Source of the DNA: a virus
Virus record (IMG/VR): IMGVR_UViG_3300032217_000845
Location: 61,777 to 125,776 of that record
DNA: 64,000 nt
Strand: one strand, 5' to 3'
Below, one piece after another: positions 9,163 to 55,676 of the stretch. Each line of letters opens with the position of its first letter. Within the stretch, counting starts at the first letter, position 1. Position numbers and translations under genes: made by a program. Under the pieces are notes generated by a model. The model made no database searches and was not told the origin of the DNA. It saw only the letters and a list, made by a program, of their open reading frames with translations.

Positions 9163-9411
9163 CCACGAAAGACTTGTCGGGGTATTGCCCCCCTTTCCCC
9201 CGACAAATGAGAAGCCCCCGACTAGTTCGGGGGTTTCGCTTTTTTGCTGTGGGTGTTTGGCTGTGGTGTTGTTGTATTCGTTTTTTCCATAGCGTTCATA
9301 CACACGGCGAGTGGGGGGGGGGTGTGTTGTTGGCGTTTCGTGTTGCTTTTGTCGGTTGTGTGTGGTATGATAGTTATAGACAATCAAGGTGGTTGTCTGA
9401 AAGGGAAACAA

Positions 9412-9570: not shown

Positions 9571-9774
9571 GTTAGTCAAAGTAGTCCCCCTGCGTATGTG
9601 GGGGGATTATTTTTTTGTCTGTGGGTGTGCGTGGTTGTTTGGAAGTGTATTCGTTTTTTCCGTAGGTATAGCAACACGGCGAAGGGGGGGGGCGACTTGA
9701 CTTTGTCGTATCTATGTGTTATGATGTAAATACAAGGGAAACGAAATAGAAGTAGTTTCGTAAAGGGGTTCTAA

Positions 9775-12642: not shown

Positions 12643-12739
12643 TCACGGCTTATAGTAAAGTCCCCCTTGACTAGAAATAGTTAGGGGGATTTTCTATTTG
12701 GTGTTGCTTTTGTCTGTGGTATGTGATAGACTATAAATA

Positions 12740-13010
12740 ACAAGGAAGCGACGGCTAACTTGGAGTATGGCTGAACAACCTCAATCGTCAGATGGGGGGG
12801 TAAGGCAATGTCGGATACTAGCGTATCGTCTTAGCGGACAAACGGCAGGTGTGCTGAAAAGCGGGCTTAGAACCGAACTGACTTGGCATTGGTGGTAAAA
12901 CGCAATCCACCTACTCAACTACAAACATAAACGGGCTGGTGTGGCGTTTATGTGGCTAACATTAGTGGCTACCAGACAGAACCCTTAGCGGAAACGCTAG
13001 GGGTATTTCT
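12740..13010 (+). ncRNA. Candidate structured non-coding RNA cassette
   Basis: Promoter TTGCTT(12704)-17-TAGACT(12727), terminator 12981-13004 and several internal hairpins. The only ORF noticed is 43 aa (12767..12898) and lacks the array's RBS. Confidence 0.55.
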
Positions 13011-13522: not shown

Positions 13523-13725
13523 TTAGCAACTAGGGAAGTCCCTTAGCCAGAAATGGTTAGGGGGCTTTCTTGCTTTTGGGCTGTGGCTGTGGGTTAGGTG
13601 TATTCGTTTTTTCCTAGCCTCAACTGCGACACGACACGCATACGATAATGACTTGACTTTCTGTTATCTGTGTGTTAGAATACTTATGTATTCAAAGGGA
13701 ATACAAAAACGAAAGGGAAACACAA

Positions 13726-14550: not shown

Positions 14551-14614
14551 CTTTTGCGTTTCTATGTGGTAGAATACTTTTGTAGTCAAAGGGATTGACT
14601 ACTGAAAGGGAAAG

Positions 14615-14815: not shown

Positions 14816-15033
14816 GACTTACAAAGCAAACCCGTCTAGCGAAAGTTAGGCGGGTTTTCTTTTGCTTGCGGTGTTTGCTTCGTGCGTTGTTGTATTCGTT
14901 TTTTCCTAAGTGCTTGCCTAGTGCGACACGCTAGAAAGAAAGTTTGTAAATGAACTTGACTTTTCTGCGGTAGCCTGATAGACTACAAAGGTAGTCAAGG
15001 CAAAGGGCTAAGACACAGATGAAAGGGAAACAA

Positions 15034-15363
15034 ATGACCACAGCAACACAGACCACCGCAAAGGTAATCTCTAAGGTTGAGTTGAGTGCTAAGGGCGTAA
15101 AGGCTCTACAAGCGTTCAACAAAGCAAAGGAAGCGGAAGCAAAGGTAAAGGCAACTAAGTCAAAGGCGGAAGCAATTTTGCGGACAGAGTTGGGCGAAAC
15201 CCCGAACACACAAGCAACTATTCAGGGCGTAGTTGTTGCCAGCGTAGTTGGAAGCAAGAATACTTCGTTTGACCGAGATGCTCTAAAAGAGTTTCTAGGT
15301 GAAGAGAAATACAACGAGTTCCTGCGGACAACCGAATACACTTACATCAAAACCGCTAACTAA
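15034..15363 (+). CDS. Hypothetical protein, paralog of 2959..3312
   Basis: RBS GAAAGGGAAACAA; FDRDALKEFL motif. Confidence 0.75.
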   Translation: MTTATQTTAKVISKVELSAKGVKALQAFNKAKEAEAKVKATKSKAEAILRTELGETPNTQATIQGVVVASVVGSKNTSFDRDALKEFLGEEKYNEFLRTTEYTYIKTAN

Positions 15364-15552
15364 GTTAGCAAGCGAGCAACCGCTAACCGAAAGGTTGGCG
15401 GTTGTTTGCGTTTTTGTTTTGCGGTGTTGCGTTTCGTGCGTGTGTTCGTGTGTCTGCGGTAAGCGTGGAAAAAACGAATACACTTTCGCCAGCCAGCCAC
15501 GCCACGAAAGCGAGTGTTTGCTTTTGTCTGCGGTTAGTGTTAGAGTGTAAGT

Positions 15553-15690
15553 ATGGACATTAGATTTTATGCGTGGAAAGCAGTCGCTAAGGTTGCTAGG
15601 TATTTCAGCAGAGTTGGGTATAACCTATTTAGGCGAGCCGAACACTTCTCTTATCTTTCAGGTAAGAAAGCAAGCAAGTATAAGGCTTGA
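15553..15690 (+). CDS. 45-aa basic protein (leaderless; MDIRFYAWK...)
   Basis: TTGCTT 15518 and TAGAGT 15541, ATG 6 nt later. Confidence 0.6.
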   Translation: MDIRFYAWKAVAKVARYFSRVGYNLFRRAEHFSYLSGKKASKYKA

Positions 15691-15742
15691 CTTTACTGCG
15701 GTAAAGTGATAGAATAGTATTACCAGACAACACTAAGAAAGG

Positions 15743-15991
15743 GTGAAAATGTCTAGCAACTATCCAGACGGCTCTATGATGGGTTCAGGTATTTACGCAA
15801 GCGAGGTTTCGTATGAAGAGTTTGAGTGCGAAAATGAAGAGTGCGGTAAGACCAATGAAGCAGGTGAAACTTCTACTGACGATTGGGGAAACTACTCTAT
15901 CGAGTGTGAGTTCTGCGGTGCTAACTATTTAGAGAGTTCTCTAAGTGATGACCGAGATGACTACTTAGCAGACTACGACCCGAATAACTAA
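15743..15991 (+). CDS. Small acidic zinc-ribbon-like protein
   Basis: CENEEC and CEFC; RBS GAAAGGG (ATG 15749 is an alternative start). Confidence 0.7.
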   Translation: MKMSSNYPDGSMMGSGIYASEVSYEEFECENEECGKTNEAGETSTDDWGNYSIECEFCGANYLESSLSDDRDDYLADYDPNN

Positions 15992-16050
15992 ATAGACTTA
16001 TGCGGTAAGGCGGGGAAAGCCGAACGCAACTTTACATAACTAAATAAACT

Positions 16051-16165
16051 TCTGCCTAACTTGTTTCCCCCTTTCCGTTAGGCAGAGAAAGAGAAACGGG
16101 ACTGCCCCCTAACTAACCCGTTTCTCCTAAACCGCTAGGCGTTTATTCGTCTAGCGGTTTTGTCT
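16051..16165 (+). ncRNA. Candidate small RNA: two hairpins with C/U-rich loops plus terminator
   Basis: Stem 16051-60/16077-86 with loop TTGTTTCCCCCTTTCC; stem 16091-100/16117-26 with loop ACTGCCCCCTAACTAA; terminator about 16129-16160. Confidence 0.5.
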
Positions 16166-16466
16166 TTGTCTGCGGTGTTTGTTTTTGTGTGTTTGTTGTA
16201 TTCGTTTTTTCTTGTGCTTGTGAAACCGCTTCCACTACGCAACTTTGTATTAGTAGGTTGCTTCGCTTCCTTCGCCTTCGCTTCGTGTTGTTGCTTCGCT
16301 TCGCTTTCGTTCGCTTCGCTTCTGCGGTGCTTCGCTTAGTGAGTTGTTTCGTTATCATTTTGTTATAAAGTCGTTATCGTCTTTGTAATCTTATTACTTG
16401 ACTTTTATTCTGCGGTAGAGTAGAATAAGAGTATGTAGAAAATCTACATAGAAAGAAAAGGGAAAG

Positions 16467-16685
16467 ATGAACAACAAGGCAAGAGATACCCGAGCAAGTT
16501 GGGGACTAGTTTCATTTATGTTGGCATTGTTTATTGGTGCTGACGCTTTGGGAAACATAGACACTACGGACTATTACCACGACAGAGCATTAGGTTTCTT
16601 TGTTCTGTTCTTAGGTATTACTTTCGTGCTTTACACTTGGAACGCTATTCAGTATGCGGTATTCCTAAAACGCAATAGACGCTAA
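16467..16685 (+). CDS. Small 2-TM membrane protein (last cassette)
   Basis: Promoter, RBS AAAAGGG and terminator. Confidence 0.7.
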   Translation: MNNKARDTRASWGLVSFMLALFIGADALGNIDTTDYYHDRALGFFVLFLGITFVLYTWNAIQYAVFLKRNRR

Positions 16686-16926
16686 CAACTTCACAACTTA
16701 GCAACCGCCTAGCCGAGAAAGGTTAGGCGGTTCTTTGTTTTTGTTTGTGCTTCTTTCTTTTGCTTCGCTTCGTGCTTCGTGAGAGGTTGAGAAAAAACGA
16801 ATACGCTTCGCAACTTTGTATTAGTGTTTGTCTGCGGTGCTTCGCTTCTAGGTTCTTTCTTTGCTTTGCTTCGCTTCGTAGTTCTTTCGTGCTTCTTTGT
16901 CTTAGTTGCTTCTTTGTCTGCGGTGC

Positions 16927-17742
16927 TTGACTTTCTTGCTTCTTTGTTCTATGTTTGTTTGCTTCGCTTCGCTTCGCTGTTATCATTTCGTTATTATTCT
17001 GTTTGACTTCTTTGCTTCTTTGTTCTATGCTTATTCTTTGTTGTTATCATTTCGTTATCTTTGTATGTTCTTGACTTTGTTAGTCGTTTGTTCTATGCTT
17101 ACTCTTTGTCTGCGGTAATGCTTCTAAGGGGTTGTTTGTTATCATTTCGTTATAAAGGTATAAAAAAAGTGCCTTTGTAGAATAAGCAAGGCGACACTTT
17201 CAGGGATAGGCGTGTGTGTTTGTATCATCTAAGGGGTCGTGGCTTCTATGAGCCTTATAGAGCCTTTTGAGATAGGGGACTTTCAGGATTATTTGGGTTC
17301 GTTATCTGTTCGTTATCTGTCTGTTATCTGTTCGTTATGTGCGGTAATGCTTCTAAGGGGTATTTCCTTGCTTCGCTTCTCTTAGTTAGTTGTTCTCTTT
17401 CCCTGTGCTTACTTGCTTAGTTCTATGCGGTAATGCTTCTACTGCTTGACTTATGTGCTTCTATGTAGTAGAATAGTGTTATCTATTCGTTATCTAATAG
17501 ACTTGACTTTATTAGAATACTTTGATAGAATAGTATTGTCTGCCTCTTTGACCTGACTTGACTTAGTTAGGTTAGGCTTCCCTAACTTACTTCCCTGCGG
17601 TAATGCTTCTACAAGTTAGTTAGTGCTTCGCTTCGCTTCCCTACTTAGTTAGTTGTTTGACTTATTCGCTTATGTCTGTTAGAATAGTGTTATCTATTTG
17701 TTATCTAACTTACTTGACTTTGTTATAGTTTTATGTTATAAT
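16927..17742 (+). promoter_or_regulatory. Seven consensus promoters with no credible downstream gene
   Basis: TTGACT-17-TAnnnT at 16927, 17003, 17071, 17446, 17503, 17657 and 17714. Confidence 0.7.
17567..17585. promoter_or_regulatory. IdeR/DtxR-type iron box (1 mismatch)
   Basis: TTAGGTTAGGCTTCCCTAA versus consensus TWAGGTWAGSCTWACCTWA. Confidence 0.65.
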
Positions 17743-17788
17743 AGTAATGTCTATCTATTGACTATCTCAACCCCTACCCCCTGCCTAC

Positions 17789-17807
17789 TTAGGTTAGGCT
17801 TACCTTA
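17789..17807. promoter_or_regulatory. IdeR/DtxR-type iron box (full consensus match)
   Basis: TTAGGTTAGGCTTACCTTA. Confidence 0.75.
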
Positions 17808-17937
17808 CCTACCCCCTGCCTAGCCCTGTGCGGTAATGCCCTTATAGGCTTACTATTCTCTGCGGTAATAGTGGTAATGGTTCGTTATCATTTCGTTATC
17901 TATTAGTTAGTGCTTGGCTTTGCTGGGTTAGTCTAGG

Positions 17938-17956
17938 TTAGGTTAGCCTTACCTAA
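17938..17956. promoter_or_regulatory. IdeR/DtxR-type iron box (full consensus match)
   Basis: TTAGGTTAGCCTTACCTAA. Confidence 0.75.
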
Positions 17957-18581
17957 CTAACTAAGTATTAGTTAGTGCTAACTAGGTATGACTTACCCCC
18001 TTGTATGTATTACCTACCTACCTATACCCCCTACCCCTACCCCCTTATGCTTACCTATCTCTGCGGTAAGTGCTTTATAGGTTGTTTGTATCCTAATGAC
18101 TTACTTACCTAGGTAAAGACTTTCATCACTTAGATAGTCATTGACTTACTTAGTCATTGACTTACTCACTTAGTCATTGACTTACTCATCTACTCATCTA
18201 CTCATCTACCTTTGTAGTGGATAGAGTGCTTAGTGCTAAGTTGATAATCGTTAGTGTCCTAATGACTTACTTACCTAGGTAAATAATAGTTAGTTAGTGC
18301 CTAGTTCGTTAGTGTCCTAATGATAGTCGTTCGTATCCTAATGATTTCATAAACTAATAAACATAATCGTTTGTATCCTAATGATTTAGATAGTAAAGAG
18401 AGCATTGACTACCTTACATAACAATAAATAATAATGTTATGTCAAGTAAGAATTTTCGTAGCATAATACAGGAAACGATTAGCAGGAACCCCAGATACTG
18501 CAACTGCCGTCTGACCCGCCAAAAGCACTAGACGCTAAGGTATCAACTCTTCGGTACAGTAGAGCCAGAATAGGTGCTAGT

Positions 18582-42145: not shown

Positions 42146-44128
42146 GTGGACCACATCAATGCACAACTTGATGCGCTAGCGGAGCTAAGTGACGAACAAG
42201 TCGCCGAGCTTCAGGGTGCAATCATAAGTGAATTCGAAGTAGTCGAAGGCGAAGAGCCTACTCCTGAGACAGTTGATGCCATGACGTCACTAGCTGACTC
42301 TCTTGACACAGTACGTGGTGAGCTTTCGCGCCGTGAGGCGCTGGCTGCCGAGCTAGCTTCCGCAGCAGCAGAAGCCACCGCACGTGTTAAGGGTTCAGAT
42401 GACGCCACAGAAAATGGAGAGGCTATGACTGACTATGCAGAAGAAGAGGTGCCAGTGGAAGAAGTTCCAGCTGATGCACCACCAGCGGAAGAGATGCCTG
42501 CAGAGGCAGCTCCAGCTGAAGACATGCCTGTAGAGGAGGCTCCTGTTGAAGGAGCTCCCGCTGAAGGTACTCCTGAGGAAGAAGTCACAGAAACTCCTGC
42601 AGAAGAAGATGAAGAAAAGAAGAAAAATGCTTCCGAGTACTCAGCTGAAACTACAGACGCATCAATCGTTCAGGAAGAAGGCACCGAGCTTTCGGCCACA
42701 GATGGAACTCCTGCAAATGCAGAAGCTCCAGCAGAAGTATCTGAAGCAGTCGTTGAGACTGTTGAAGGTTCTGAAGCATCAACCCTAGAAACATCAACAA
42801 TTGAGCCAGAGGCTCAGGAAGGGCAGGCACCCGTGACCGCCGCAGCAGAAGAGGGCTTCTCAGCCCCTGCAGACCGTCAGCCTGTTATCCAGGTTACAGA
42901 GGCAGCTCCAGTGGCAATCACTGCAGGTGCTGACATTCCTGGTTACACAGCTGGCTCAACCATCAACGACATGAACGAAGTAGCTCAGGCTATGGAAAAG
43001 CGTATCCACTCGCTTCGTCGTGTTAACGGAGGAGACGGAGAGCAGCACATTGTTGCTTCCCTAACCACCGCGTACCCAGAGTCACGCACTCTGACAACCG
43101 ACGCAGAGTCAAACCAGCTGAAAATCAACAGCGTTGTAGGCCCTGAGGCACTTGTTGCTTCTGGTGGTCACGCAGCACCTTTCGAGGTTAAGTACGACAT
43201 CTATGCAATCGGTTCTACAAACGTCCGCCCAGTGCGTGACGCTCTGCCTAAGTTCCAGGCTGACCGCGGTGGTATCCGCTTCGTAACTCCACCGAGTTTC
43301 GCAGCTGACACCTACAACGCTGCTGTCGGAGTATGGACTGCCGCTACTGACACTTTGCCTTACGCTAACACCAAGGCTTCGTACACAGTAACTGCTGCTA
43401 ATGAAAACACCGTCTCAACAGACGCTGTTACTCTACAGCTACAGTTCGGTAACCTAATGACCCGTGCTTACCCAGAACTAATTGCTCGCCACAACGAGCT
43501 AGCTCTAGTACAGCACGCTCGTGAGGCAGAAGACAACCTGCTAAGCAAGATTGGCAACGCATCTACAGCTGTTACAACCACAAGCCTTATCGGTTTTGGT
43601 CGTGACTTCCTAGTTCAGATTCGTCGTGCCGCTACTGCTTACCGCAGCCGTCACCGCATCGACCCTAAGACCAACCTAAAGGCGATTATCCCAGCTTGGG
43701 TATACTCCGCTATGGCTGCTGACCTAACCCTGTCTATGCCAGGTGATGGTACTTTGTCAGTCTCTGAGTCAGAAATCAATGGTTACCTTGCTAACGTAAA
43801 CGTAACCTTGACTCCTACTCTAGATGGTACTGTCTTTGGTTCACAGAGTGCTGGCGCACTTCTTGAGTTCCCAGACTCATTCGTCTGGTACCTATTCGCA
43901 GAGGGTACATTCCTCTTCCTAGATGGTGGAACTCTTGACCTAGGTATCATCCGTGACAGCTCTCTGGTTGGCACAAACGACTACAAGATGTTCGTTGAAA
44001 CTTTCGAGAACGTTGCCTTTGTTGGTATCGAAGCTCTAAAGATTACATCGACCATCAGCGTGAACGGTGTAGCCGCTGCTCTCCGCGACACCACTGGTGG
44101 CGCAACTGCAGCTGCAATCGAGTACTAA
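42146..44128 (+). CDS. Major capsid protein (hexamer-type) with acidic N-terminal scaffold-like region
   Basis: GTG after GGAGG; ALVASGG, VRDALPKFQA.RGG and LDLGIIRDS....NDY..F.E.FE patterns; terminator follows. Confidence 0.85.
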   Translation: MDHINAQLDALAELSDEQVAELQGAIISEFEVVEGEEPTPETVDAMTSLADSLDTVRGELSRREALAAELASAAAEATARVKGSDDATENGEAMTDYAEEEVPVEEVPADAPPAEEMPAEAAPAEDMPVEEAPVEGAPAEGTPEEEVTETPAEEDEEKKKNASEYSAETTDASIVQEEGTELSATDGTPANAEAPAEVSEAVVETVEGSEASTLETSTIEPEAQEGQAPVTAAAEEGFSAPADRQPVIQVTEAAPVAITAGADIPGYTAGSTINDMNEVAQAMEKRIHSLRRVNGGDGEQHIVASLTTAYPESRTLTTDAESNQLKINSVVGPEALVASGGHAAPFEVKYDIYAIGSTNVRPVRDALPKFQADRGGIRFVTPPSFAADTYNAAVGVWTAATDTLPYANTKASYTVTAANENTVSTDAVTLQLQFGNLMTRAYPELIARHNELALVQHAREAEDNLLSKIGNASTAVTTTSLIGFGRDFLVQIRRAATAYRSRHRIDPKTNLKAIIPAWVYSAMAADLTLSMPGDGTLSVSESEINGYLANVNVTLTPTLDGTVFGSQSAGALLEFPDSFVWYLFAEGTFLFLDGGTLDLGIIRDSSLVGTNDYKMFVETFENVAFVGIEALKITSTISVNGVAAALRDTTGGATAAAIEY

Positions 44129-44140
44129 AAAACGCAGTGG

Positions 44141-44170
44141 AGGGGGGCTCGGCAACGGGCCCCCTAACAC
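44141..44170 (+). terminator. Terminator-like hairpin after the capsid gene
   Basis: AGGGGGGCTCG-GCAA-CGGGCCCCCT; no clear T tract. Confidence 0.55.
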
Positions 44171-44204
44171 AGCAAACACACAGACTTTAAATTAAGGATT
44201 TCAG

Positions 44205-45296
44205 ATGGCTTTCCCAAAGAATGGCGTTGTAGAGGCACCAAAGATTGTGCCCTCCGCTTTTGGCCTACTCACTGTAGTCAAGCCTGAAAATTCAGCTGAC
44301 GAAAACATGTGGATTCGTGGTTTCTCTCAAGAGTTTGAGACTGAAATTTATTCAGCAAAAAACTGGGACGACACTGACACTACTAGTTCTGTAGTTGTAG
44401 CTGCAGGTGTCCCTAACTATTTCACCAAAATTGACCCATTCTTTATTGAGGCAGAAGAGCTTCGTTCAGGTTTAGGGTTCCTAGGTCTTGACCGTGTTGC
44501 ACGCCTAAAACGCCAACTTGACGGTATTACCCAAGACGCTATGGAGAAAGAACTTTGGGACGGCGATATTAGAATTGGTCAGAGCCATCCTAACCGCGCT
44601 TTAGTGTCTTCTGGCGTTACCGTGCTTGATGGTACTGGACTCTCGTCAAAGCGTGCTTTGGCAGTACTAGAGCATGGCATCGGTGTGGTATCAGAATCTG
44701 GCGAGCAGGGAGTCATTCACGCTACTAGAGATACAGTCGCTATTCTCTCAAGCAACAATCAAATGCTTTTCCACAGCAAAAACTTTGACCACCTACAAAC
44801 TTTTGGTGGCACTCCACTGGTAGTAGGTTCTGGCTACACTGGCAACGGTCCTCGTATTGCTGTTGCCACTGCAACTATTAGCGGTAGCACTACGCTGACT
44901 ATCAATACTTCAGGCGACCACTATCTTCTTGCTGGCGATACTGTTCGCTATTCTGTTGTTGGAGCACTAATCAACCAATCTTCAACTTCTACAGCAGTTG
45001 TCACTAAAGTTGACGCTGACACAGTAACAATTACTATTGCAAGCGCTACTAACCGTTCTCAAGAAGCGGTTACTGGCTACATTCAGCAGTTGGGAACCAA
45101 CTCTGCAAAATGGATTTACGGCACCGGAACAGTCCGCACATACGTGGGCGAAATTGATGTCGTGAACGACAATCTAGCGCAAGCTTATGATGTGTCGGGA
45201 AATCAAAATGACATGAGACTTAAAGCAATCCGCCCAGCTGCGGTTTACTTTGATACCTCGATACACCTCGCTGTTCGGGTCGACCTAACAGCTTAA
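44205..45296 (+). CDS. Second capsid protein (pentamer-type) with an inserted beta-rich domain
   Basis: Position after the hexamer-type capsid gene; T..GT..V.G.GY and WIYGTG.V motifs flank a Thr/Ser/Val-rich insertion. Confidence 0.65.
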   Translation: MAFPKNGVVEAPKIVPSAFGLLTVVKPENSADENMWIRGFSQEFETEIYSAKNWDDTDTTSSVVVAAGVPNYFTKIDPFFIEAEELRSGLGFLGLDRVARLKRQLDGITQDAMEKELWDGDIRIGQSHPNRALVSSGVTVLDGTGLSSKRALAVLEHGIGVVSESGEQGVIHATRDTVAILSSNNQMLFHSKNFDHLQTFGGTPLVVGSGYTGNGPRIAVATATISGSTTLTINTSGDHYLLAGDTVRYSVVGALINQSSTSTAVVTKVDADTVTITIASATNRSQEAVTGYIQQLGTNSAKWIYGTGTVRTYVGEIDVVNDNLAQAYDVSGNQNDMRLKAIRPAAVYFDTSIHLAVRVDLTA

Positions 45297-45329
45297 CCAT
45301 AACCACAATAACCTAAGGAGAATAGCTCA

Positions 45330-46496
45330 ATGGCTACTCAAGATTATGCAGCAAGCATCCAAGGTGTGTCAATCCGTGTCACCCGTCTGGACGCTGCTGG
45401 AAACCTACTAACTGGTCCTCTGGACAGCTACACCACGTCAGCTTTTATGCGTGTTTCGTTCACCCCTGAATATGAAGAGGGCGACGAAATCACCGAAAAA
45501 GGTGCAAACGGTGTCATCTGCGTGTCCTACAAGGCTCCAGACACCCTGAAGCGTATCACCATGGAGCTCGCTATTTGTGAGCCGGACCCAGAGCTTTCTG
45601 CTTTGCTTTCTGGTGGTTTGCTTCTTCGCAAAGATATCTCAAACGATGGCAATCCTTCCTTCAAATCTGTTGGTTGGGCTGCTCCAGGCGTTGGAGATGA
45701 CCCAGCCGGTAACGGTGTAGCCATCGAATGTTGGTCACACGCAGTTTCTGGTGGTAAGCGTGCCGGAGTACTTCCGTACTTCCACTGGGTATTCCCATAC
45801 GCTAAGTTCCGTCAGTCAGGCGACCGTGTAATTGAAAACGGTATGATGGCTAACACCTTCGAAGGCTACGGTCTTGGAAATGTTAACTTTGCTACTGGTA
45901 TTGATGGCCGCTGGGAGTTCCCGGTTGCTGCAGAGCGTCCATACGCTTATGCACGTACATCATACGCACCGACCGGTCTATCAGGCTTCTATACCTGGTC
46001 TGACAACTCAACCAACCAGGTTGTATTCTCAGCTAGCGGTGCTGGTACCAAGAACAAGACCACAATCACAATTGCTAACGTTGCTGCAAGCAACACAACT
46101 AACAGTAACAACATCACTATGGGCTTCTCAAATAACCCTGTTCTCTCTGTTGGTGACTTGATTCGTGTTCAGAACATTGGCACCGAGTTTGATGGTGATG
46201 TACTTGTTGTATCTTATGCAGCTAACACCATCACCTACACCTCACCTGTAGCAAATACTACGTTCAACACCATTACTACTAACACTGCTGTGGTTACAAA
46301 CAGCATTGCTCGTGTTCAGGTGCTCAACGCTGCTACCGAGGTTCGTGTATCACCTGTTGCTACAACTGAGACAGACTTTGCCTCAGCAGCTGCAGATTCT
46401 ACATTCAACGTTCCTGGAAGCAGGACTTACAATGCTGATAATGCTATCGACAACATCATCACAGCTAACGAAACTGGCTCAACAACTGCCAACTAG
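45330..46496 (+). CDS. Major tail protein with C-terminal extension
   Basis: IRVTRLDAAG...EYEEGDEI..K.ANG..CV pattern; RBS AAGGAG; terminator follows. Confidence 0.85.
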   Translation: MATQDYAASIQGVSIRVTRLDAAGNLLTGPLDSYTTSAFMRVSFTPEYEEGDEITEKGANGVICVSYKAPDTLKRITMELAICEPDPELSALLSGGLLLRKDISNDGNPSFKSVGWAAPGVGDDPAGNGVAIECWSHAVSGGKRAGVLPYFHWVFPYAKFRQSGDRVIENGMMANTFEGYGLGNVNFATGIDGRWEFPVAAERPYAYARTSYAPTGLSGFYTWSDNSTNQVVFSASGAGTKNKTTITIANVAASNTTNSNNITMGFSNNPVLSVGDLIRVQNIGTEFDGDVLVVSYAANTITYTSPVANTTFNTITTNTAVVTNSIARVQVLNAATEVRVSPVATTETDFASAAADSTFNVPGSRTYNADNAIDNIITANETGSTTAN

Positions 46497-46512
46497 TAGC
46501 TAATAACTCAGT

Positions 46513-46555
46513 GGGCGGTGCATTCAGTAAAATGGATGTACCGCCCGTTTAGTTT
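46513..46555 (+). terminator. Intrinsic terminator
   Basis: GGGCGGTGCATTCA...TGGATGTACCGCCC-GTTT. Confidence 0.7.
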
Positions 46556-46572
46556 GATAGACAGAGGAAGAC

Positions 46573-47682
46573 ATGGCAAATAACCTGTGGATTCAGCCAG
46601 AAGAGCTGGGTCACTATGCCAATACCGAGTACGCTCAGGAGGCGTGCGAGGTTGCCTCTTTCCTGCTTTGGGCAATGTCTGGTCGCAAATACACTGGTGA
46701 AACTGTTGTAACTGAGCGTTACACTTGTGTACTTCGCAATAACCGTATGGGACCTTCTTCAAAGACAAATTCTCCAGTTCTGTTCGGTGGAGATGTGTTC
46801 AACATTCCATCGGGTGACTATGACGAATACTCAGAACTCACCGCAGACGGCCTCTCCCCAGATGCTCGTATTCGACTTCGCGGTCGTCCAGTAACAAAAA
46901 TTATTGCTATCCGTAACAAGGTCGGAGCAATCATTGACCCGTCTAAGTACTATCTTGTAGACCACTCAACTATCCACGTTGCTGCTGGCACTCCTTGGAC
47001 CCCATGTAATACAGAAATTACTTACATGTATGGCGTCCCTGTTCCAGTTGCTGGAAAGATGGCTGCACTAACTATGGCTACAGAATTTGCCAAGCTTTGG
47101 GCCGGAGATGACGACTGTGCTTTGCCGCAGCGTATTACATCTGTATCTCGCCAGGGTGTCTCTTACACAATTCTTGATAATCAGGAGTTCATTGCTGAAC
47201 TTCGTACTGGTCTTTACGCAGTTGACCTATTCCTTAAGACAGTCAACCCAGACAACGCTCGTAGGAAGTCAAAGGTCTTTACTCCTGATGTTCCTCGTGC
47301 TCGCCGTTACACAGCTAAGCCGTTGTATCTGACTGCAAATGCTCTCTTTGATGTAAAACTAATCCGCAGTGCAGCTGGCTCATGGACATCTGTTGGAACT
47401 AGTGCAAACCTAGCTGCATTGGTTGATGACACCGGCTGGACTCCTGTTGTTACTCTTCGCAACTACGGTGCTACTAAATCTGTAGACCTAGACACGTCTG
47501 ACATAACTGTAAATACCACAACTAATATTGTCACGTTCTCGGTTTCTTATGACAAAGCTTTTGCAGCAATCGGAATGGTTGACCCTGGAACTTGGACGCT
47601 ATATGCAACCAAGACTATCGCTGGCGTACCAACTGTCAGCGAACTTGCCACGGGTAACTTGAAGATTCAGATGTACGACTAG
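46573..47682 (+). CDS. Head-to-tail adaptor
   Basis: LLWAMSGR...CALPQRITSVSRQGVS...TGL..VD.F...VNP pattern. Confidence 0.75.
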   Translation: MANNLWIQPEELGHYANTEYAQEACEVASFLLWAMSGRKYTGETVVTERYTCVLRNNRMGPSSKTNSPVLFGGDVFNIPSGDYDEYSELTADGLSPDARIRLRGRPVTKIIAIRNKVGAIIDPSKYYLVDHSTIHVAAGTPWTPCNTEITYMYGVPVPVAGKMAALTMATEFAKLWAGDDDCALPQRITSVSRQGVSYTILDNQEFIAELRTGLYAVDLFLKTVNPDNARRKSKVFTPDVPRARRYTAKPLYLTANALFDVKLIRSAAGSWTSVGTSANLAALVDDTGWTPVVTLRNYGATKSVDLDTSDITVNTTTNIVTFSVSYDKAFAAIGMVDPGTWTLYATKTIAGVPTVSELATGNLKIQMYD

Positions 47683-47690
47683 GAGAGATA

Positions 47691-48194
47691 ATGGCTGGAC
47701 TCGATGTCAGAATGGTGTCTGACGACGCCCTTCATTTAAAAAACATGATGGATGGGATTATGGAAAGAGTGGAGGCTGTATTTCAGTCCTACAATGTTCC
47801 GCTTCCTGGACGTCGTTACTGGATGGTTGGTGACCCTGCAATTGACTGCGAACAAGTTGTAGTCTCTTTTATGCAAATGTACTTGGGTTCCCCGGGCGAT
47901 GAAGCTCAGCAGCCTCAGCGTTGCAACGTTCCTCGCAGTGCTACTGTTGCTATTCATATTTCTAGAGAAATTCCTACTGTTGGTGTGAATGGTCGTCCAC
48001 CTACTGCTGCCAAGATTCAAGAAGGCTCCAGTAGTGCAGCTATCGACGCTTGGGTACTCATGGAAACTGTACGTGAGTTTGACATGTGGGATGAAACTGG
48101 CTATGGCTTGGGTGTTATTGCTACCCTTGACATGGCTGGACCTGAAGGTGGATTTCAAACTACCAGCCTTCAACTAACTATGGCGGTTCCATAA
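47691..48194 (+). CDS. Tail terminator/completion-type protein
   Basis: Position; C-terminal GPEGG motif. Confidence 0.6.
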   Translation: MAGLDVRMVSDDALHLKNMMDGIMERVEAVFQSYNVPLPGRRYWMVGDPAIDCEQVVVSFMQMYLGSPGDEAQQPQRCNVPRSATVAIHISREIPTVGVNGRPPTAAKIQEGSSSAAIDAWVLMETVREFDMWDETGYGLGVIATLDMAGPEGGFQTTSLQLTMAVP

Positions 48195-48195
48195 A

Positions 48196-48669
48196 ATGCC
48201 AACTACTGTTGTATATAAATTTGAGCGTATGAGCTGGGAAAAGCACGCTGGTGAGTTTAGGAAAGAGTTTAATACTCCTAGAGTTGGTGTAGTTGGTACA
48301 TGGCTTAATAAAGAGGGTGTAAAGATGGTTGCCGGAGCTAAGGCTCAGGTCGAGCGTCGCCGTAAGACCCCTGGTATTATTCGTAGACCTACGCATAGGC
48401 TGGCTAACTCTATTCACATGCGTCACTTGGGCAATGTTACTGGTCAGTACCTTTGGATTGGTACTGAAGTTGACTATGCCCTATATGTACATGAGGGAAC
48501 CAAGCCTCACAAGATTCGCCCACGGGAAACTGGCGGACAGCTAATCTTTAGAACTAAGGGTGCTGGTGGCGTTATTGTTCATCGTGCAAAAGAGGTCAAT
48601 CACCCCGGAATTACCCGCCGTAGACGTAACCCATTCTTGAGCGACCAACTAAAGCATTTCCGTTACTAG
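48196..48669 (+). CDS. HK97 gp10-like neck protein
   Basis: LANSI...YALYVHEGTKPH.I.P...VNHPG....NPFL. Confidence 0.75.
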   Translation: MPTTVVYKFERMSWEKHAGEFRKEFNTPRVGVVGTWLNKEGVKMVAGAKAQVERRRKTPGIIRRPTHRLANSIHMRHLGNVTGQYLWIGTEVDYALYVHEGTKPHKIRPRETGGQLIFRTKGAGGVIVHRAKEVNHPGITRRRRNPFLSDQLKHFRY

Positions 48670-48734
48670 TACAATAGTCTTAGCACAAACTGTGTTAAAA
48701 GACAATAATACGCATTAGCGAGAAAGAAAACAAG

Positions 48735-49073
48735 ATGAGTAGATTTAAAGACTTTGGCAAGACTGTCGACCTAGATAAGCCAGCAGAACCACTATCGTTC
48801 AAACTTTGGGACGAAGAGTTCCACTGTGTCCGTCGTATTCAAGGCCGCGTTATGTTGGAACTTGTAGAGAGTTCGAACGCAGACGACCCTTCAGCATCAG
48901 CTAGAACAATCCGTACCTTCTTCAAGAAGATTATGCTTCCAGAAAGCTACGAGCGATTTGACGCACTTCTTGGCGACCAAGACAAAATTGTTTCTGTAGA
49001 AACACTTAGCGAAATTGTTGCTTGGCTAATTGAACAGTACGGTGACCGCCCAAATCCGCAGCCAGGGGCTTAG
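48735..49073 (+). CDS. Tail assembly chaperone (G-like)
   Basis: Upstream of tape measure; ends WLIEQYGDRP with slippery C CCA AAT at 49049-55. Confidence 0.85.
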   Translation: MSRFKDFGKTVDLDKPAEPLSFKLWDEEFHCVRRIQGRVMLELVESSNADDPSASARTIRTFFKKIMLPESYERFDALLGDQDKIVSVETLSEIVAWLIEQYGDRPNPQPGA

Positions 49074-49453
49074 CCACTTGGGCTGTAGACCTCTGGCCAT
49101 ATGTAAACGGTAAAGCAATAGTGAATCACATAAACCTTTTGGAACTAGATTTAGCAGAAATGCTAGATGTGATTCACTATTTTTACGAGGAAGACCTCAA
49201 CTATTTCACTGTTGAACATGCAAAGATGGCTGAGGTTAGACGTGTAGCGATTTACAAACATCTCTACAATGTCGACTATAAGTACGGTAGTGGTGGTGCC
49301 TCTTCTGGTGTTGCCAATGGCGGATTTGATGAAGATAACCTCGAGCCGTTTGACCCAAGTAACGCACCAGTAAAATCGTATTTTCCGCCTACTGAAGTGG
49401 ATGCAGATTCACGTAATCCTTTTGGTAGCGTACTTGATGCACCAATTAACTAA
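49055..49453 (+). CDS. Tail assembly chaperone -1 frameshift extension (GT-like)
   Basis: The -1 frame is open from the slippery site (SAARGLATWAVDLWPYVNGKA...) into track ORF 49121..49453. Confidence 0.8.
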   Translation, partial: SAARGLATWAVDLWPYVNGKAIVNHINLLELDLAEMLDVIHYFYEEDLNYFTVEHAKMAEVRRVAIYKHLYNVDYKYGSGGASSGVANGGFDEDNLEPFDPSNAPVKSYFPPTEVDADSRNPFGSVLDAPIN

Positions 49454-49472
49454 TTAGAAAGGAGGTGAGAGC

Positions 49473-52400
49473 ATGGCAGTAGTCGGCGAAGCCCACATAC
49501 TCGTCAGGGCCATTACAACTGGCCTGAAGAAAGATATTGAAAAAGGGTTCCAAGGTGTTAAAGGAGCTACCGAAGCAGCTGGTAAAGAGTCTAGTAGTGG
49601 TTTTAGTAATGAGTTTGCTAAAGGTCTAAAGAAGTTTAACAACGCTTCTCAGGGGGCAGCTAGTAGTTTTCACAAACTAATGCGTCGTGCAAACATATTC
49701 CAAGCTGGAATTGGTGTTGCAGCTAGCTCTCTCTCCGCTCTAGTTGGGGCACTTGGTGCCTTTGCAGGAGCAGCTGGTGGAGCAGCAGCTTCAGGTGTTG
49801 CACTTGTTGGAGTGATGGCTCAGCTTAAAGTTGCCACTATGGTCGGCAAAATGGCATTTAAAGGTGTCATGGAGGCTGTTAAAGCTGCTGGAACTCAAAG
49901 CGGATTAACTGGTAAAACCATCCGTGAGCTACGTGAAGAGATGCAGCAACTTGCTTTCTCTGCTGAAGAGGCCGCTCTTAGTGAAGAAAAAGCATCTCTA
50001 AGCTTGGAAAAAGCTCGAGAAAACCTTGCTCGAGTTCAGAACTTACCGCCAGACAACCGTGCTCGCCGTGAGGCGGAACTTGCATATCAAGAAGCCGACC
50101 TTGCATATCGTCAGGCTAAAGATAAGCATTCTGACCTCATGGAGCAGATTAACGACCCTCAAAAAAAGAGTGGCGGTGCTGGTGCTCAAGACCCATATAA
50201 GGACTTAACTGCAACTCAAAAAGCATTTGCTATTTATCTCAAGGGCATAATGCCTAAGATGAAGAGCCTGAGAGAAGCGGCCGCTAGTAGCTTCCTTCCA
50301 GAGCTAACTAAGCAAATGGACGCCATGATGAAGAATGGCTTCTTCCAACTTCTTGTTACTGGTTTTGAAAGAGTTAGCCAGGGACTTGCAGAGGCTACTA
50401 AGAACTTTGCTGGCTCGGCATTTGATGGTACAACTAAGGGTAGCCTTGCTCACTTTTTTGAAAGTTCCCGAGGAACTGTAGGTGCTTTAGGTAAAGTACT
50501 TGGCAACATGTTTAAGGCATTCCTTGGACTGATGCAAGCTGCCGACCCTCTTATTAAAAGATTTGTCAACTTTCTAGACAAGAAAAGCTTTGGTCTTGCG
50601 GAAAGTGTAGGTAAGAATCAAGGACCACTTACTACATTCTTTAGAAATGCTGGAGATGCCGCTGCCTCCCTAGGTAAAATTTTTGGTAACGTATTCAAGG
50701 GACTTACTTCCTTAATTACAGCTAATATAGGTCCAGGCTCCGCCGGTCAGGGAATGCTTGATTGGATGGCCAAGGGCAGCGAGAAGTGGGCGCAGCTTCA
50801 AAGTTCTGTCTCTCAAAACAACATGAATAACTACTTCAGTCAGGCTGTTGAAAACTTTAAGTCTATGTGGAATGCTATTAGCGGTTTTGCTAGCATCTTT
50901 GCATCACTAGGTAATCAACCAGGAGTGAAAGAGTTCTGGGATACAATTGCCGCTGGTTCTGGAAGCATTGAAAAAATCTTGATGAGCATGACTGCTGCCG
51001 GACCCGGCCTTGCAGACCTTATCAGTAAAGTTGTAGAGATTGTTGCCCTCTTTAGCGATACTAAACAGATTCAAGCGTACATTGCTGTACTTACTGACAT
51101 GTTTAGATGGTTCCTTGAAATTGGCAAGATGATTAAACCAATCGCCGATGCACTAGGTCCAGTAATTGGTGTTGTCGGTGCTTTGGTTACATCGTTCTTG
51201 GTTCTTAAAAAAGTAACCATGATTGTATATGGAACAATCTATACCTTTGGTAAAGGTTTGATGTTCTTAAGAAAAGCATTTATGGCGATTAAAGCTGCTC
51301 AAGTTGCATACACAGCTGCAGTTACTGCAAACACGGTTGCAACTGGTGCAAACAAGGCTATGAAGAATGCTGCTATAGCGTCATCCGTCAAAGAAGCTTT
51401 TATGACATCCTTTGGCACTAAAGCCAAAGAAAAAGAAAGTCTTGCACTTGCAACTGCCACCATTGCTCGTCAAGCTCAAATTATTACAGCTCTTGAAGCA
51501 TCTGGAGCTAATGGTGTATTAGCAGCTTCTGAGGTTGGAGTTGGTACAGCAGCTACCGCAGCCGTGCCTCCTGTTGCAACACTTGGTGCTACTCTTATGG
51601 CTGCAATACTTCCTGTTCTACCGATTATTCTTGCAGTAGTAGCTGCAATTGCCTTGATAGTAGGTGCTGTTGCTATCTTTAATGCTGTTCAAGCCAAGGA
51701 AGCAGAAGATGCTCAGAAGAGGGTTGGCGAAGCAATAAAAGCCAATGTTTCAATGGGTAAAGACATAGAGTCCCAAACAATCCACGCTCAAAATACTTGG
51801 ACTGCAGCTATATCTTCCACTTCACTTGGAACTAAGTCACTAGCAGCAGACGTTACTAACTTGCATAAGCAAACTAAAACCCTGCAAACTACTCAAAAGA
51901 GCGGCTGGGACTGGTTCTGGAATGCTACTAGTGGCTCTGAAGACCTTAAAGAAGGTCTTAAGAATATGGGTACGCAACTTGGTAAGTTAGCTAAAAAAGA
52001 TTTGAAGGGTGCTCAGCAAGAATTTATTAGATTTGCTAACGCTCAAGGAGCGTCTAGAGAAGAACTTACTGTTCAAATGCGAGAGATGCCAGAGTTCCAA
52101 GACGAGCTCACAAAAACTGCTGAGAAATATGGTCTTCTAACTGATGCTATGGACGAGAACCAGAAAGCTGCTGTTCTTGTTGACGTAGCTACTAATAGTG
52201 GTGCCTATGCTAAAGCTAAGGCAGCTGAGGCCACAGAAAACTTTAATCAAAAGATTCGTGAAGCTGCTTCTACTTTTATGGACTTTGAAGGTCCACTACA
52301 GCAAAACTCAGAGGACGTTAAAAAGTGGGCTGAGGCGCAAGCTAAACATTCTAAGTCTGCTACAGATACTTGGAAAGACTACTGGGATGGTCAAAGTTTT

Positions 52401-53300
52401 AGCCTAGATAAGTACATGGCTGACTTAAATGCTCAAGTTAAAAAACAAGTCGACTGGGCTAGCAATATTTCAATGCTTCAGGGAGCTGTTGGTCAGGGTC
52501 TTATTAGTCAAGATACTCTTAACGACCTAAAGCTCAAGGGTGCGGCTGGTGCAGACTTAGTGGATTCTTTAGCTAAGAAATTTAAATCAGGAACTGCGAG
52601 TGCTAAAGCAGACCTTAAAAAATTCCAAGCAGCAACTGAAACATCAAAACTATTCTCTGATACAAATGTTGCAAGCGGTTTGACAGATGTGTTTGTCAAT
52701 CCAAAGAACACCACTGTTTTAGATATGGCCACTGCAAAAGTTGGTAAACAGGCTGGTGGAATTATGGCTGGCGAATATCGTAAAGAGATGGAAGCTAAAC
52801 TTAAAGCTGGTAAAGTTACCCTTCAACAAATTATGAAGGACCAGGGGATTAAAATGGAAGACATTAGTAAAGAAGTTCAAAAATTAAAAATTGAAGCAGA
52901 TGTTACTGTTAAGTACACTGGCGATACTGATGGCAAAAAGTTAGGTGGAATGATTGGCTACAAACTTGGTGGAATGATTCCTCGCTATGCCAACGGTAAA
53001 AGTCCTGGCTCGTTCCAAATGTTCCCTAATGGAATTCTTAAAGGCCCTGGCGGTCCTAGAAGTGACAGTATTCTTGCCCGTGTATCGCGCGACGAAATGG
53101 TTGTCAACGCTGAGTCAACTCGACGTAACAAAGATGTTCTTAACTACATCAACAAGGGTGGAGTTGTTAGTGCTGGCGGTGGTGGAAACTACAACTTATC
53201 ATTTGTTGTCAATGCGTCAGACGGTATGGATGAGACTCAGGTTGCTAGAATTGTCTTGAGACAACTAGACAGAACTTTAGGACTAGGAGCGTCTAAGTAA
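49473..53300 (+). CDS. Tape measure protein
   Basis: 1275 aa, Ala/Gly-rich helical, VGEAHILVRA N-terminus, C-terminal GPGGPRSDSI.A..S..E.VVNA; RBS GAAAGGAGG. Confidence 0.92.
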   Translation: MAVVGEAHILVRAITTGLKKDIEKGFQGVKGATEAAGKESSSGFSNEFAKGLKKFNNASQGAASSFHKLMRRANIFQAGIGVAASSLSALVGALGAFAGAAGGAAASGVALVGVMAQLKVATMVGKMAFKGVMEAVKAAGTQSGLTGKTIRELREEMQQLAFSAEEAALSEEKASLSLEKARENLARVQNLPPDNRARREAELAYQEADLAYRQAKDKHSDLMEQINDPQKKSGGAGAQDPYKDLTATQKAFAIYLKGIMPKMKSLREAAASSFLPELTKQMDAMMKNGFFQLLVTGFERVSQGLAEATKNFAGSAFDGTTKGSLAHFFESSRGTVGALGKVLGNMFKAFLGLMQAADPLIKRFVNFLDKKSFGLAESVGKNQGPLTTFFRNAGDAAASLGKIFGNVFKGLTSLITANIGPGSAGQGMLDWMAKGSEKWAQLQSSVSQNNMNNYFSQAVENFKSMWNAISGFASIFASLGNQPGVKEFWDTIAAGSGSIEKILMSMTAAGPGLADLISKVVEIVALFSDTKQIQAYIAVLTDMFRWFLEIGKMIKPIADALGPVIGVVGALVTSFLVLKKVTMIVYGTIYTFGKGLMFLRKAFMAIKAAQVAYTAAVTANTVATGANKAMKNAAIASSVKEAFMTSFGTKAKEKESLALATATIARQAQIITALEASGANGVLAASEVGVGTAATAAVPPVATLGATLMAAILPVLPIILAVVAAIALIVGAVAIFNAVQAKEAEDAQKRVGEAIKANVSMGKDIESQTIHAQNTWTAAISSTSLGTKSLAADVTNLHKQTKTLQTTQKSGWDWFWNATSGSEDLKEGLKNMGTQLGKLAKKDLKGAQQEFIRFANAQGASREELTVQMREMPEFQDELTKTAEKYGLLTDAMDENQKAAVLVDVATNSGAYAKAKAAEATENFNQKIREAASTFMDFEGPLQQNSEDVKKWAEAQAKHSKSATDTWKDYWDGQSFSLDKYMADLNAQVKKQVDWASNISMLQGAVGQGLISQDTLNDLKLKGAAGADLVDSLAKKFKSGTASAKADLKKFQAATETSKLFSDTNVASGLTDVFVNPKNTTVLDMATAKVGKQAGGIMAGEYRKEMEAKLKAGKVTLQQIMKDQGIKMEDISKEVQKLKIEADVTVKYTGDTDGKKLGGMIGYKLGGMIPRYANGKSPGSFQMFPNGILKGPGGPRSDSILARVSRDEMVVNAESTRRNKDVLNYINKGGVVSAGGGGNYNLSFVVNASDGMDETQVARIVLRQLDRTLGLGASK

Positions 53301-55639: not shown

Positions 55640-55676
55640 AATAGTCTTATAAAGACGACCCGACGTGAGGATGTAA

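Follow-up and report, generated by a model that had tools for sequence, protein, structure and literature searches.

Near the end of the early gene block of an uncultured lake phage of actinobacteria, a hairpin displays a C-rich loop whose reverse complement resembles the ribosome-binding site (RBS) shared by the early genes, which raises the question of what kind of RNA carries this loop and on what it acts. We studied this locus in the final 64,000 nucleotides (nt), hereafter the window, of a 125,776-bp IMG/VR virus record (IMGVR_UViG_3300032217_000845) that is estimated to be 93% complete. Positions are those of the window unless given with G000, which denotes the whole record (window 9174 is G000 70950). 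A sequence-only reading of the window had proposed a discrete small RNA (sRNA) at this place. We find that the element (15992-16165; Table 1) is the untranslated 3' region (3'UTR) of an early gene of 80 amino acids (aa) and not a separate sRNA gene. Tentatively, with a probability of about 40%, we read it as a 3'UTR-borne, possibly processed anti-RBS RNA that would act on early mRNAs through the loop of its hairpin HP1.

The arms of HP1 (16051-16060 and 16077-16086) enclose the 16-nt loop TTGTTTCCCCCTTTCC (16061-16076). A second hairpin, HP2, with arms at 16091-16100 and 16117-16126 and the loop ACTGCCCCCTAACTAA, separates HP1 from an intrinsic terminator. Both the 10-bp stem with a C-rich loop at 16051 and the second C-rich-loop hairpin with a terminator behind it (16091-16126 and 16129-16160) had been proposed from the letters, and folding bore them out: the 136-nt stretch reached -51.6 kcal/mol, compared to a mean of -28.4 for its shuffles (z = -6.9), and none of 200 shuffles was as stable. 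RNAalifold independently yielded the same four hairpins. The additional one, HP0, was absent from the earlier list of features, and the full order of the element is HP0, a 22-nt linker, HP1, the 4-nt link GAAA, HP2, and the terminator. Neither HP1 (followed by GAAAGAG) nor HP2 (followed by CCTAAA) has the U-run immediately behind a GC-rich hairpin that marks an intrinsic terminator, and only the third hairpin counted from HP1 has this form. The linker after HP1 harbors the RBS-like sequence GAAAGAGAAAC.

Regarding the transcript to which these hairpins belong, the early promoter at 15687-15715 is the sole promoter-like site able to drive the element. In a scan limited to this promoter type, no site scoring 9 or more of 12 matches was found in 15716-16397, the next one lying at 16398. 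Because the interval 15716-16397 contains no promoter-like site, we assign the element to the 3'UTR of the 80-aa gene, and the discrete sRNA of the earlier proposal did not survive this analysis. The element lies between the stop codon, ending at 15991, and the intrinsic terminator (16129-16160), and its conservation is above neutral. The 80-aa protein has homologues at 11 IMG/VR loci and 36 metagenome loci, and its only Pfam match was a weak one to Lar_restr_allev (E 0.075).

We infer a possible processing region in the linker that separates HP0 from HP1 (16029-16050). For the word ATAACTAAATA, which had been noticed twice upstream of HP1 and taken as a possible processing site, the repeat itself is exact (15984 and 16036), but its role as a processing-site repeat was rejected. 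Overlapping the stop codon of the 80-aa gene, the first copy is found in this genome only, being absent from all four distinct relatives, and the count in the window at no more than one mismatch (4 versus 1.58 expected, with 7 of 100 shuffles reaching 4) is not above chance. The surrounding 16-mer, ATAACTAAATAGACTT, is found once more, at the stop codon of a different early gene (G000 58250). At G000 58250-58520, corresponding to about 14251-14535 in the relative L013, some 250 nt of noncoding sequence with a strong fold (z = -4.4) precede a terminator; this stretch had no Rfam match and may be another 3'UTR RNA.

The loop of HP1 is antisense to the 13-mer GAAAGGGAAACAA, with two extra C residues. 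Because its reverse complement equals the 13-mer plus two G, the predicted duplex comprises 13 bp with a 2-nt bulge. Genome-wide, the exact 13-mer occurs 10 times on the + strand and never on the - strand, and all copies are located in the early block (G000 54458-76797), which upholds both the earlier claim that the loop mirrors the cassette RBS and the claim that the early genes share this RBS. The 16-mer GAAAGGGAAACAAATG, that is, the 13-mer including ATG, was found in six exact copies in the window, compared to 0.73 expected by chance, and at up to three mismatches it gave 17 matches, exclusively on the + strand and between positions 231 and 15036. Similarly, all 26 sites combining GAAAGGG with a start codon fell within the early block (G000 54471-77525), while 20 of 22 late-gene starts paired more weakly than -10 kcal/mol, judged by duplex energy alone. 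Of the five HP1-carrying loci, four contain the exact 13-mer RBS, compared to a single one of the 43 loci that lack HP1.

We next considered the energetics of this pairing. With a predicted opening energy of 0.09 kcal/mol, the HP1 loop is fully accessible, and the predicted net pairing ranged from -10.0 to -13.1 kcal/mol at nine of the ten exact RBS sites and was -6.3 kcal/mol at the tenth. Only 1.15% of 2000 composition-preserving shuffles of the loop reached the observed duplex energy (P = 0.0115); by predicted pairing, the unpaired loop is complementary to the Shine-Dalgarno (SD) region beyond what its composition provides.

The other two loops behave differently. No antisense match to the RBS was found for the loop of HP2, which pairs best with G-runs in the 3' arms of two terminators, near 12668 and 13549. 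This loop is complementary to GTTAGGGGG in these arms (12668-12690 and 13549-13570; -20.6 and -23.6 kcal/mol, respectively), and it resembles the 5' arm of HP1 plus three extra C. The loop of HP0, GGGGAAA, is complementary to UUUCCCC in the HP1 loop, and this 7-nt complement is invariant, while 4.9% of 200,000 shuffles of the composition of loop 1 also contain it. A kissing interaction between HP0 and HP1 is therefore offered as a suggestion only.

To place the element among its relatives, a covariance model of HP1 plus HP2 (R1) was run on 47 homologue loci of the 80-aa gene. It retrieved the element in five loci, each time directly after this gene. Two of these, L036 and L037, are identical, leaving four distinct relatives, and the resulting alignment of five distinct sequences (about 900 nt) represents about three effective independent lineages. 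HP1 is invariant in 36 of 36 columns and HP2 in 35 of 39, the latter differing by loop T/C insertions only, compared to 38 of 70 third codon positions, 28 of 41 terminator columns, 23 of 29 promoter columns, and 2 of 4 columns of the link between the two hairpins; positions 16028-16050 are invariant in 20 of 23 columns. HP1 in full and the HP2 stems together contain no variable column (0 of 56), while the rest of the element contains 24 in 96 (Fisher P = 1e-5). Together, HP1 and HP2 form the most conserved 76 nt of the alignment; the HP2 stems are invariant, and its loop measures 16, 18, or 19 nt. Since variable sites sit directly between the hairpins, a recent transfer of the whole block is argued against. 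The RBS-like linker between the hairpins indeed varies (GAGAAAG, GAGATAG, GATAAAG), and the candidate combination of this linker with a CTG micro-open reading frame was rejected for this reason.

Conservation of the loop had been named beforehand as a point on which an anti-RBS role could fail; HP1 proved invariant throughout, and in the sister hairpins described below the stems change while the loop motif stays. The covariation looked for in relatives was found in part, with one compensatory change each in HP0 and the terminator and none in the invariant HP1 and HP2. HP0 shows one compensatory change from G-C to U-A and two changes from C-G to U-G, its loop being invariant in five of five sequences, and the terminator shows one compensatory and two one-sided changes. 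The U-G wobbles and compensatory changes in these two hairpins are consistent with an RNA of the + strand.

HP1 is not the only hairpin of its kind. We listed a wider family of C-rich-loop 3'UTR hairpins by script and not by covariance model; a single-hairpin model (R2) recovered, besides the five HP1 copies, only L075, L011, and L054 at E < 0.05 and failed to detect two sister hairpins, the one at window 9174 and that of L013. These sister hairpins have unrelated stems of 8 to 11 bp (14 bp in L077) and loops of 10 to 19 nt with CCCC(C)UUUC, often UUAUCCCCUUUC. They occur in this genome at G000 54238, 56826, and 70950 and in the relatives L075, L054 (two), L011, L003 (two), L041, and L067. All 12 listed hairpins lie 3 to 132 nt past a stop codon, and each precedes a terminator or has its own U-run; four of the 12 are overlapped by a mechanically listed open reading frame (ORF) in another frame. 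In L076, the orthologue of the 9174 hairpin (upstream protein 78% identical) has kept the 15-nt loop, with three stem pairs changed on both sides. Behind a different gene, L075 has a homologous element of three hairpins in which a stem pair has changed in a compensatory manner from A-T to G-C and the loop reads TTATCCCCTTTC; its second hairpin is not C-rich, and its terminator shares a core with that of the present phage. The hairpin at G000 56826 has orthologues of which one distinct sequence (3 loci) retains TTATCCCTTTC, its different 14-bp stem containing two U-G wobbles; in L077, UUAUCCCUUUC is retained on a wholly different 14-bp stem that has two wobbles. Of 90 distinct large-loop hairpins, 19 contain a pyrimidine run of at least 7 in the loop and 6 a purine run, despite the purine-rich + strand. 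Runs of 9 to 10 G in inter-cassette spacers (9312-9321 and 9683-9691) are the strongest predicted partners of all C-rich loops, at down to -23.9 kcal/mol.

Evidence for a transcript comes from assembled contigs, which cannot show RNA ends. An RNA-library contig of 541 nt, X19, which derives from a relative with 42 differing letters, covers 15843-16390 and thus the gene end, the element, the terminator, and the sequence beyond; we take it as a hint of expression at most. A marine RNA run with a small share of the stretch (X20) gave no cover over 16003-16126, and the DNA runs X2 and X5 cover the element; none of the differences listed for them falls within 15993-16127, an observation to which we attach no weight.

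Table 1. Positions in the 64-kb window of the element, its transcription unit, and related features
Feature	Positions	Strand	Remarks
HP1, 10-bp stem, 16-nt loop antisense to early RBS	16051-16086	+	Loop UUGUUUCCCCCUUUCC
HP2, 10-bp stem, 16-nt C-rich loop	16091-16126	+	Loop 16101-16116; not antisense to RBS
Intrinsic terminator hairpin and U-rich tail	16129-16170	+	Hairpin 16129-16160, 13 pairs
HP0, small hairpin	16001-16028	+	Outer stem 16001-16004/16025-16028; inner stem 16009-16011/16019-16021; loop GGGGAAA 16012-16018
A/U-rich single-stranded linker, 22 nt	16029-16050	+	Contains conserved second copy of ATAACTAAATA
80-aa early gene, two CxxC pairs	15749-15991	+	Stop codon 15989-15991
Early promoter TTGACT, 17 nt, TAGAAT	15687-15715	+	10 of 12 matches, TG extension
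Remnant like cassette -35 box and spacer (TAGACT, then TATGCGG)	15993-16004	+	No -10 box; not called in promoter scan
Nearest exact target RBS GAAAGGGAAACAA	15021-15033	+	
Further exact copies of GAAAGGGAAACAA (starts)	231, 1469, 4028, 5259, 8900, 9399, 12000	+	
Sister hairpin, 3'UTR of another early gene	9174-9206	+	9-bp stem, loop TATTGCCCCCCTTTC, then separate terminator
Early-message 5' hairpins	13690-13705, 14583-14603, 14982-14999, 16433-16449		

Starting from the structure, its strict conservation, the complementarity and accessibility of the loop, and the confinement of the target RBS to the early block, all of which are established, we propose the following mechanism. Positions 15992-16165 would form the structured 3'UTR of an mRNA that begins at the 15687 promoter, includes the 80-aa gene, and ends with the terminator at 16129-16160. 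The HP1 loop would pair with GAAAGGGAAACAA just upstream of the start codon, that is, with the SD region and spacer common to about ten early-cassette genes. This pairing would hide the ribosome-binding site and lower translation of the early messages, and it may also open them to a double-strand RNase. The element would work chiefly in trans, whether it remains the tail of the complete mRNA or persists as a stable 3' fragment guarded by three consecutive hairpins. We favor action in trans over a purely cis-acting element, given that the AAACAA spacer of other genes is matched by the UUGUUU half of the loop and the spacer of its own gene is not. Judging from the predicted pairing, the HP1 loop probably damps early-gene translation, and the GGGGAAA loop of HP0 could serve as its lid. 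More doubtful is the wider proposal of an RNA-only self-limiting circuit in lytic freshwater actinophages, in which a family of hairpins at the 3' ends of early messages would present the antisense of a private early RBS, mask or titrate this site, and thereby cap or shut off translation of the early block, with the HP0 loop as a built-in competitor for the seed; such a circuit would parallel, in RNA, the RegA and RegB proteins of T4.

Several observations weigh against an anti-RBS role. Forty-two of the 47 loci with a relative of the 80-aa gene are devoid of the element, as is L010, the architecturally closest relative, at that position. HP1 and HP2 never vary and hence provide no covariation, and their invariance would suit a protein-binding or DNA-level site equally; moreover, HP2 and the invariance of its loop are not accounted for by the pairing model. 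The match to the RBS carries its 2-nt bulge, near-complements of the RBS at up to two edits are not enriched genome-wide (3 versus 3.49 expected), and in a raw duplex scan, inter-cassette G-runs beat the RBS as partners of the loop (-23.9 versus about -14 to -16 kcal/mol). When loops were compared to the RBS of their own lineage, the own locus ranked 4, 1, 3, 2, 1, 1, 7, 6, 8, 2, and 2 of 9, which is weakly positive, with one loop off register; HP1 and its RBS are both invariant across lineages and thus carry no information on joint change. In two distinct sequences (4 loci) orthologous to the G000 56826 hairpin, the loop lacks the C-rich character. The RNA would arise from the same promoter class as its targets and would therefore not be a simple timed switch. 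Finally, X19 is the sole RNA-library contig over the element, it crosses the terminator, and its library may hold DNA.

Other explanations were weighed against the same data. The put RNAs of phage HK022, which consist of two hairpins, offer a parallel for a module of termination, antitermination, or 3'-end stability that would act on RNA polymerase, a termination factor, or exonucleases, the anti-RBS likeness being a by-product of pyrimidine-rich loops. Such a module would fit the placement of all 12 sister hairpins directly before a terminator or with their own U-run, the position of the element near the end of the early block, one cassette before the late genes, and, weakly, the RNA-library contig that crosses the terminator. 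In mycobacteria, C-rich stem-loops have been proposed as alternative terminators (PMC6486639). However, HP1 and HP2 have no U-tail of their own, the base order of the loop fits the RBS beyond composition, and structure would suffice for such a role, with no need for an invariant 16-nt loop beside a terminator that itself varies (28 of 41 columns versus 36 of 36 in HP1); we regard this explanation as rather unlikely. The loop could instead fold back on the SD of its own 80-aa gene and limit that gene only. In Staphylococcus aureus, a UCCCCUG motif in the icaR 3'UTR pairs with the SD of its own message, blocks initiation, and creates an RNase III substrate (PMC3868564), and this is a precedent for cis-only autoregulation. 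The element is physically part of the 80-aa mRNA without a promoter of its own, and its linkage to the gene is kept in all five loci that carry it. The RBS of this gene contains GAAAGGG and gives a predicted net energy of -10.4 kcal/mol, but the pairing involves 7 to 8 bp, ranks 11th of 26 sites, and is weaker than at 7 of the 10 exact canonical RBS sites. Indeed, the 5' half of the loop, UUGUUU, matches the canonical spacer AAACAA and not the UGAAAA of the own gene, and the 42 loci that have an orthologue of the gene without the element speak against a purely cis role as well, leaving it unlikely in our view.

The invariance of both stem and loop in HP1 and HP2 is typical of hairpins recognized by proteins, and the C/U-rich loops, being similar to the 3' tail of 16S rRNA, might capture or divert proteins of phage or host with an affinity for such sequence, examples being S1, KH-domain proteins, or an RNase or toxin directed at the anti-SD. 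CCCCCUUUCC and the usual 16S rRNA 3' tail, CCUCCUUUCU, disagree at 2 of 10 positions, and the extended SD of a late gene, AGAAAGGAGGTGA, fits such a tail in the host. There is, however, no candidate binding protein, the sister hairpins share the loop motif only and not the stems, and HP2 is equally conserved yet has a different loop, which makes a protein-binding or decoy RNA quite improbable. At the DNA level, the two 10-16-10 inverted repeats could be bound by a DNA-binding protein, for instance near an origin or packaging region, in keeping with their invariant sequence and with the adjacent 2.2-kb repeat-rich noncoding region in which the GC skew changes sign. Against this, the loop motif is strand specific, being C-rich on the coding strand (pyrimidine runs in 19 and purine runs in 6 of the 90 loops), the G-U wobbles of the sister stems would be A-C mismatches on the opposite strand, and all instances lie inside transcription units, before terminators; we hold a DNA site to be very improbable. 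We grant just as little to a functionless relic of a decayed cassette, with a dead promoter, 5'UTR hairpin, RBS-like linker, and ORF remnant. This already disfavored reading could draw on the remnant of a -35 box and spacer upstream and on GAAAGAGAAAC, which resembles an RBS and follows HP1 as the RBS follows the 5' hairpin in normal cassettes, but the linker is not conserved while the hairpins are the most conserved 76 nt, and the 5'UTR hairpins of normal cassettes have loops of 3 to 4 nt.

We also looked for known counterparts of the element. An Rfam scan of the window at gathering thresholds returned manA (12744-12921) only and left the element unmatched. With E values of up to 10, cmscan of 15900-16300 gave only chance matches to mir-374 and P37 over the terminator, and 6C was not matched; an Rfam search of G000 44000-62000 returned nothing, and a search for tRNA and tmRNA found none. 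Among 50,697 records of isolate phages, neither blastn of 15000-17500 nor tblastn of the 80-aa protein gave a match. The exact 16-nt loop was found at 21 loci in IMG/VR, none of them in a related hairpin, and most of these follow CAT and thus read, in unrelated phages, as an RBS plus start codon in reverse complement. A pattern of the HP1 stems around an arbitrary loop gave three chance matches only in IMG/VR and the HP2 pattern gave none, in pattern scans that may exclude the record of the window itself; model R1 found nothing in four related IMG/VR records. In prokaryote genomes, taken one per species (185,579 species), exact patterns had 0 copies, and the candidate roles of a CRISPR-repeat mimic, a host homologue, or a prophage were rejected on these exact-word searches. 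A limited full-text literature search found no published description of such an element in actinophages.

RNAIII and RsaE use C-rich hairpin loops as seeds against the SD regions of several mRNAs. The element resembles the RNAIII 3' domain, RsaE/RoxS, and SprX of Firmicutes in that C-rich hairpin loops, including that of the terminator hairpin, serve as SD seeds there; these are, however, independent cell or prophage sRNA genes acting on host mRNAs, whereas the best predicted targets of the element are early genes of the phage itself. Similarly, T4 encodes a translational repressor, RegA, and an endoribonuclease, RegB, both phage proteins aimed at its own early RBSs; the likeness lies in a phage-made factor directed against early RBSs, and the difference is that the agent proposed here is an RNA loop. 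SprX is described as a phage-carried sRNA (PMC4005690). With the 6C sRNA (B11, RF01066), the element shares the host phylum Actinobacteria and the order of two C-rich-loop hairpins followed by a terminator, each loop of the element holding a run of five C (five to six in relatives). The C-rich loops of 6C require neither Hfq nor ProQ to pair with G-rich ribosome-binding sites (PMC6486639). Unlike 6C, which is a chromosomal gene with its own promoter, the element is phage encoded, located in a 3'UTR, and promoterless, and what its loop contains is no bare C-run but 13 nt antisense to the early RBS and spacer of the phage itself. With icaR, it shares an anti-SD C-rich motif in a long 3'UTR, but icaR acts on its own message, whereas the loop of the element is a better match to about ten other genes at their RBS than to its own gene; in addition, a hairpin loop presents the motif here, and the phage carries it in several 3'UTRs. 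With no Rfam match and no exact-pattern copy in the prokaryote genomes, the element appears to belong to none of the 6C, icaR, and Firmicutes C-rich-loop sRNA families.

The source of the window is assigned to an uncultured lake phage of actinobacteria. For the portal protein, identity is 70% with the counterpart in Actinomycetia phage DSL-LC01 and 64% with the one in Microbacterium phage Pumpernickel, the majority of the 876 matching phage records are actinophages, and most of the 20 sequencing runs that contain part of the stretch carry freshwater, lake, or river labels. The phage is apparently virulent. Positions 1 to 18.4 kb are occupied by an array of early cassettes, each laid out as a TTGACT-17-TAGAAT promoter, a short 5' hairpin, the RBS, a small ORF, and a terminator. 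Between 13 and 20 kb, 19 promoter-like sites were found, compared to 8.3 expected, and the 13 strict matches to the cassette promoter genome-wide are all on the + strand. The element belongs to the second-to-last early cassette and is followed by one more cassette (72-aa ORF at 16467-16685, terminator at 16703), a noncoding stretch, and the late structural genes (terminase, portal, major head, and tail proteins), which lie on the same strand as the early block. Among nine proteins encoded behind the canonical RBS or a one-mismatch variant, Pfam identified one dual-specificity phosphatase domain and one weak DUF7941, the others having no match.

A small 5' hairpin of 6 to 9 bp with an A/G loop of 3 to 4 nt, located between the -10 box and the RBS, seems to open each early message. 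Late-gene SDs are mostly weak or short compared to the uniform early RBS, and the late gene starting at 49473 carries the full extended SD AGAAAGGAGGTGA (within 49448-49472). The manA RNA (RF01745; 61.4 bits versus a gathering score of 55.2; + strand) occupies a cassette without an ORF, with a terminator and a promoter-like stretch upstream and a second terminator downstream, near 12975-13010, and thus represents a structured RNA as cassette cargo in an actinophage. Downstream of the element, some 2.2 kb (16160-18430) are nearly free of ORFs, the 72-aa ORF being the sole one, and are very T-rich (AT skew -0.35). This region is crowded with short repeats (GCTTCGCTTC runs, GTTATC..TTCGTTATC, CTGCGGTAATGCTTCT, TCCTAATGA, and three copies of TAGTCATTGACTTACT), contains at least seven promoter-like sites with no ORF behind them, and, at this border between early and late genes, shows a flip in the sign of the GC skew. 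The word CTGCGG occurs within promoter spacers and also right after terminators (13980, 14868, 15421, 16172). In the relative L061, each copy seen, including the one beside HP0, reads CTGTGG, which looks like a concerted change of a lineage-specific word.

What is known of the post-transcriptional control of early genes in phages comes almost exclusively from proteins of a few model phages, and the RNA regulators of actinobacteria and their phages have barely been explored. What the locus offers is a directly testable model: a short RNA under strict conservation, whose predicted seed is clear and whose predicted targets, about ten, lie in the same genome. Should it hold, the 3'UTR hairpins that pass for spare terminators across many phage genomes would call for reinterpretation as translational regulators. 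The loop with its matched RBS would also be a part that can be moved into high-GC Gram-positive hosts for synthetic control.

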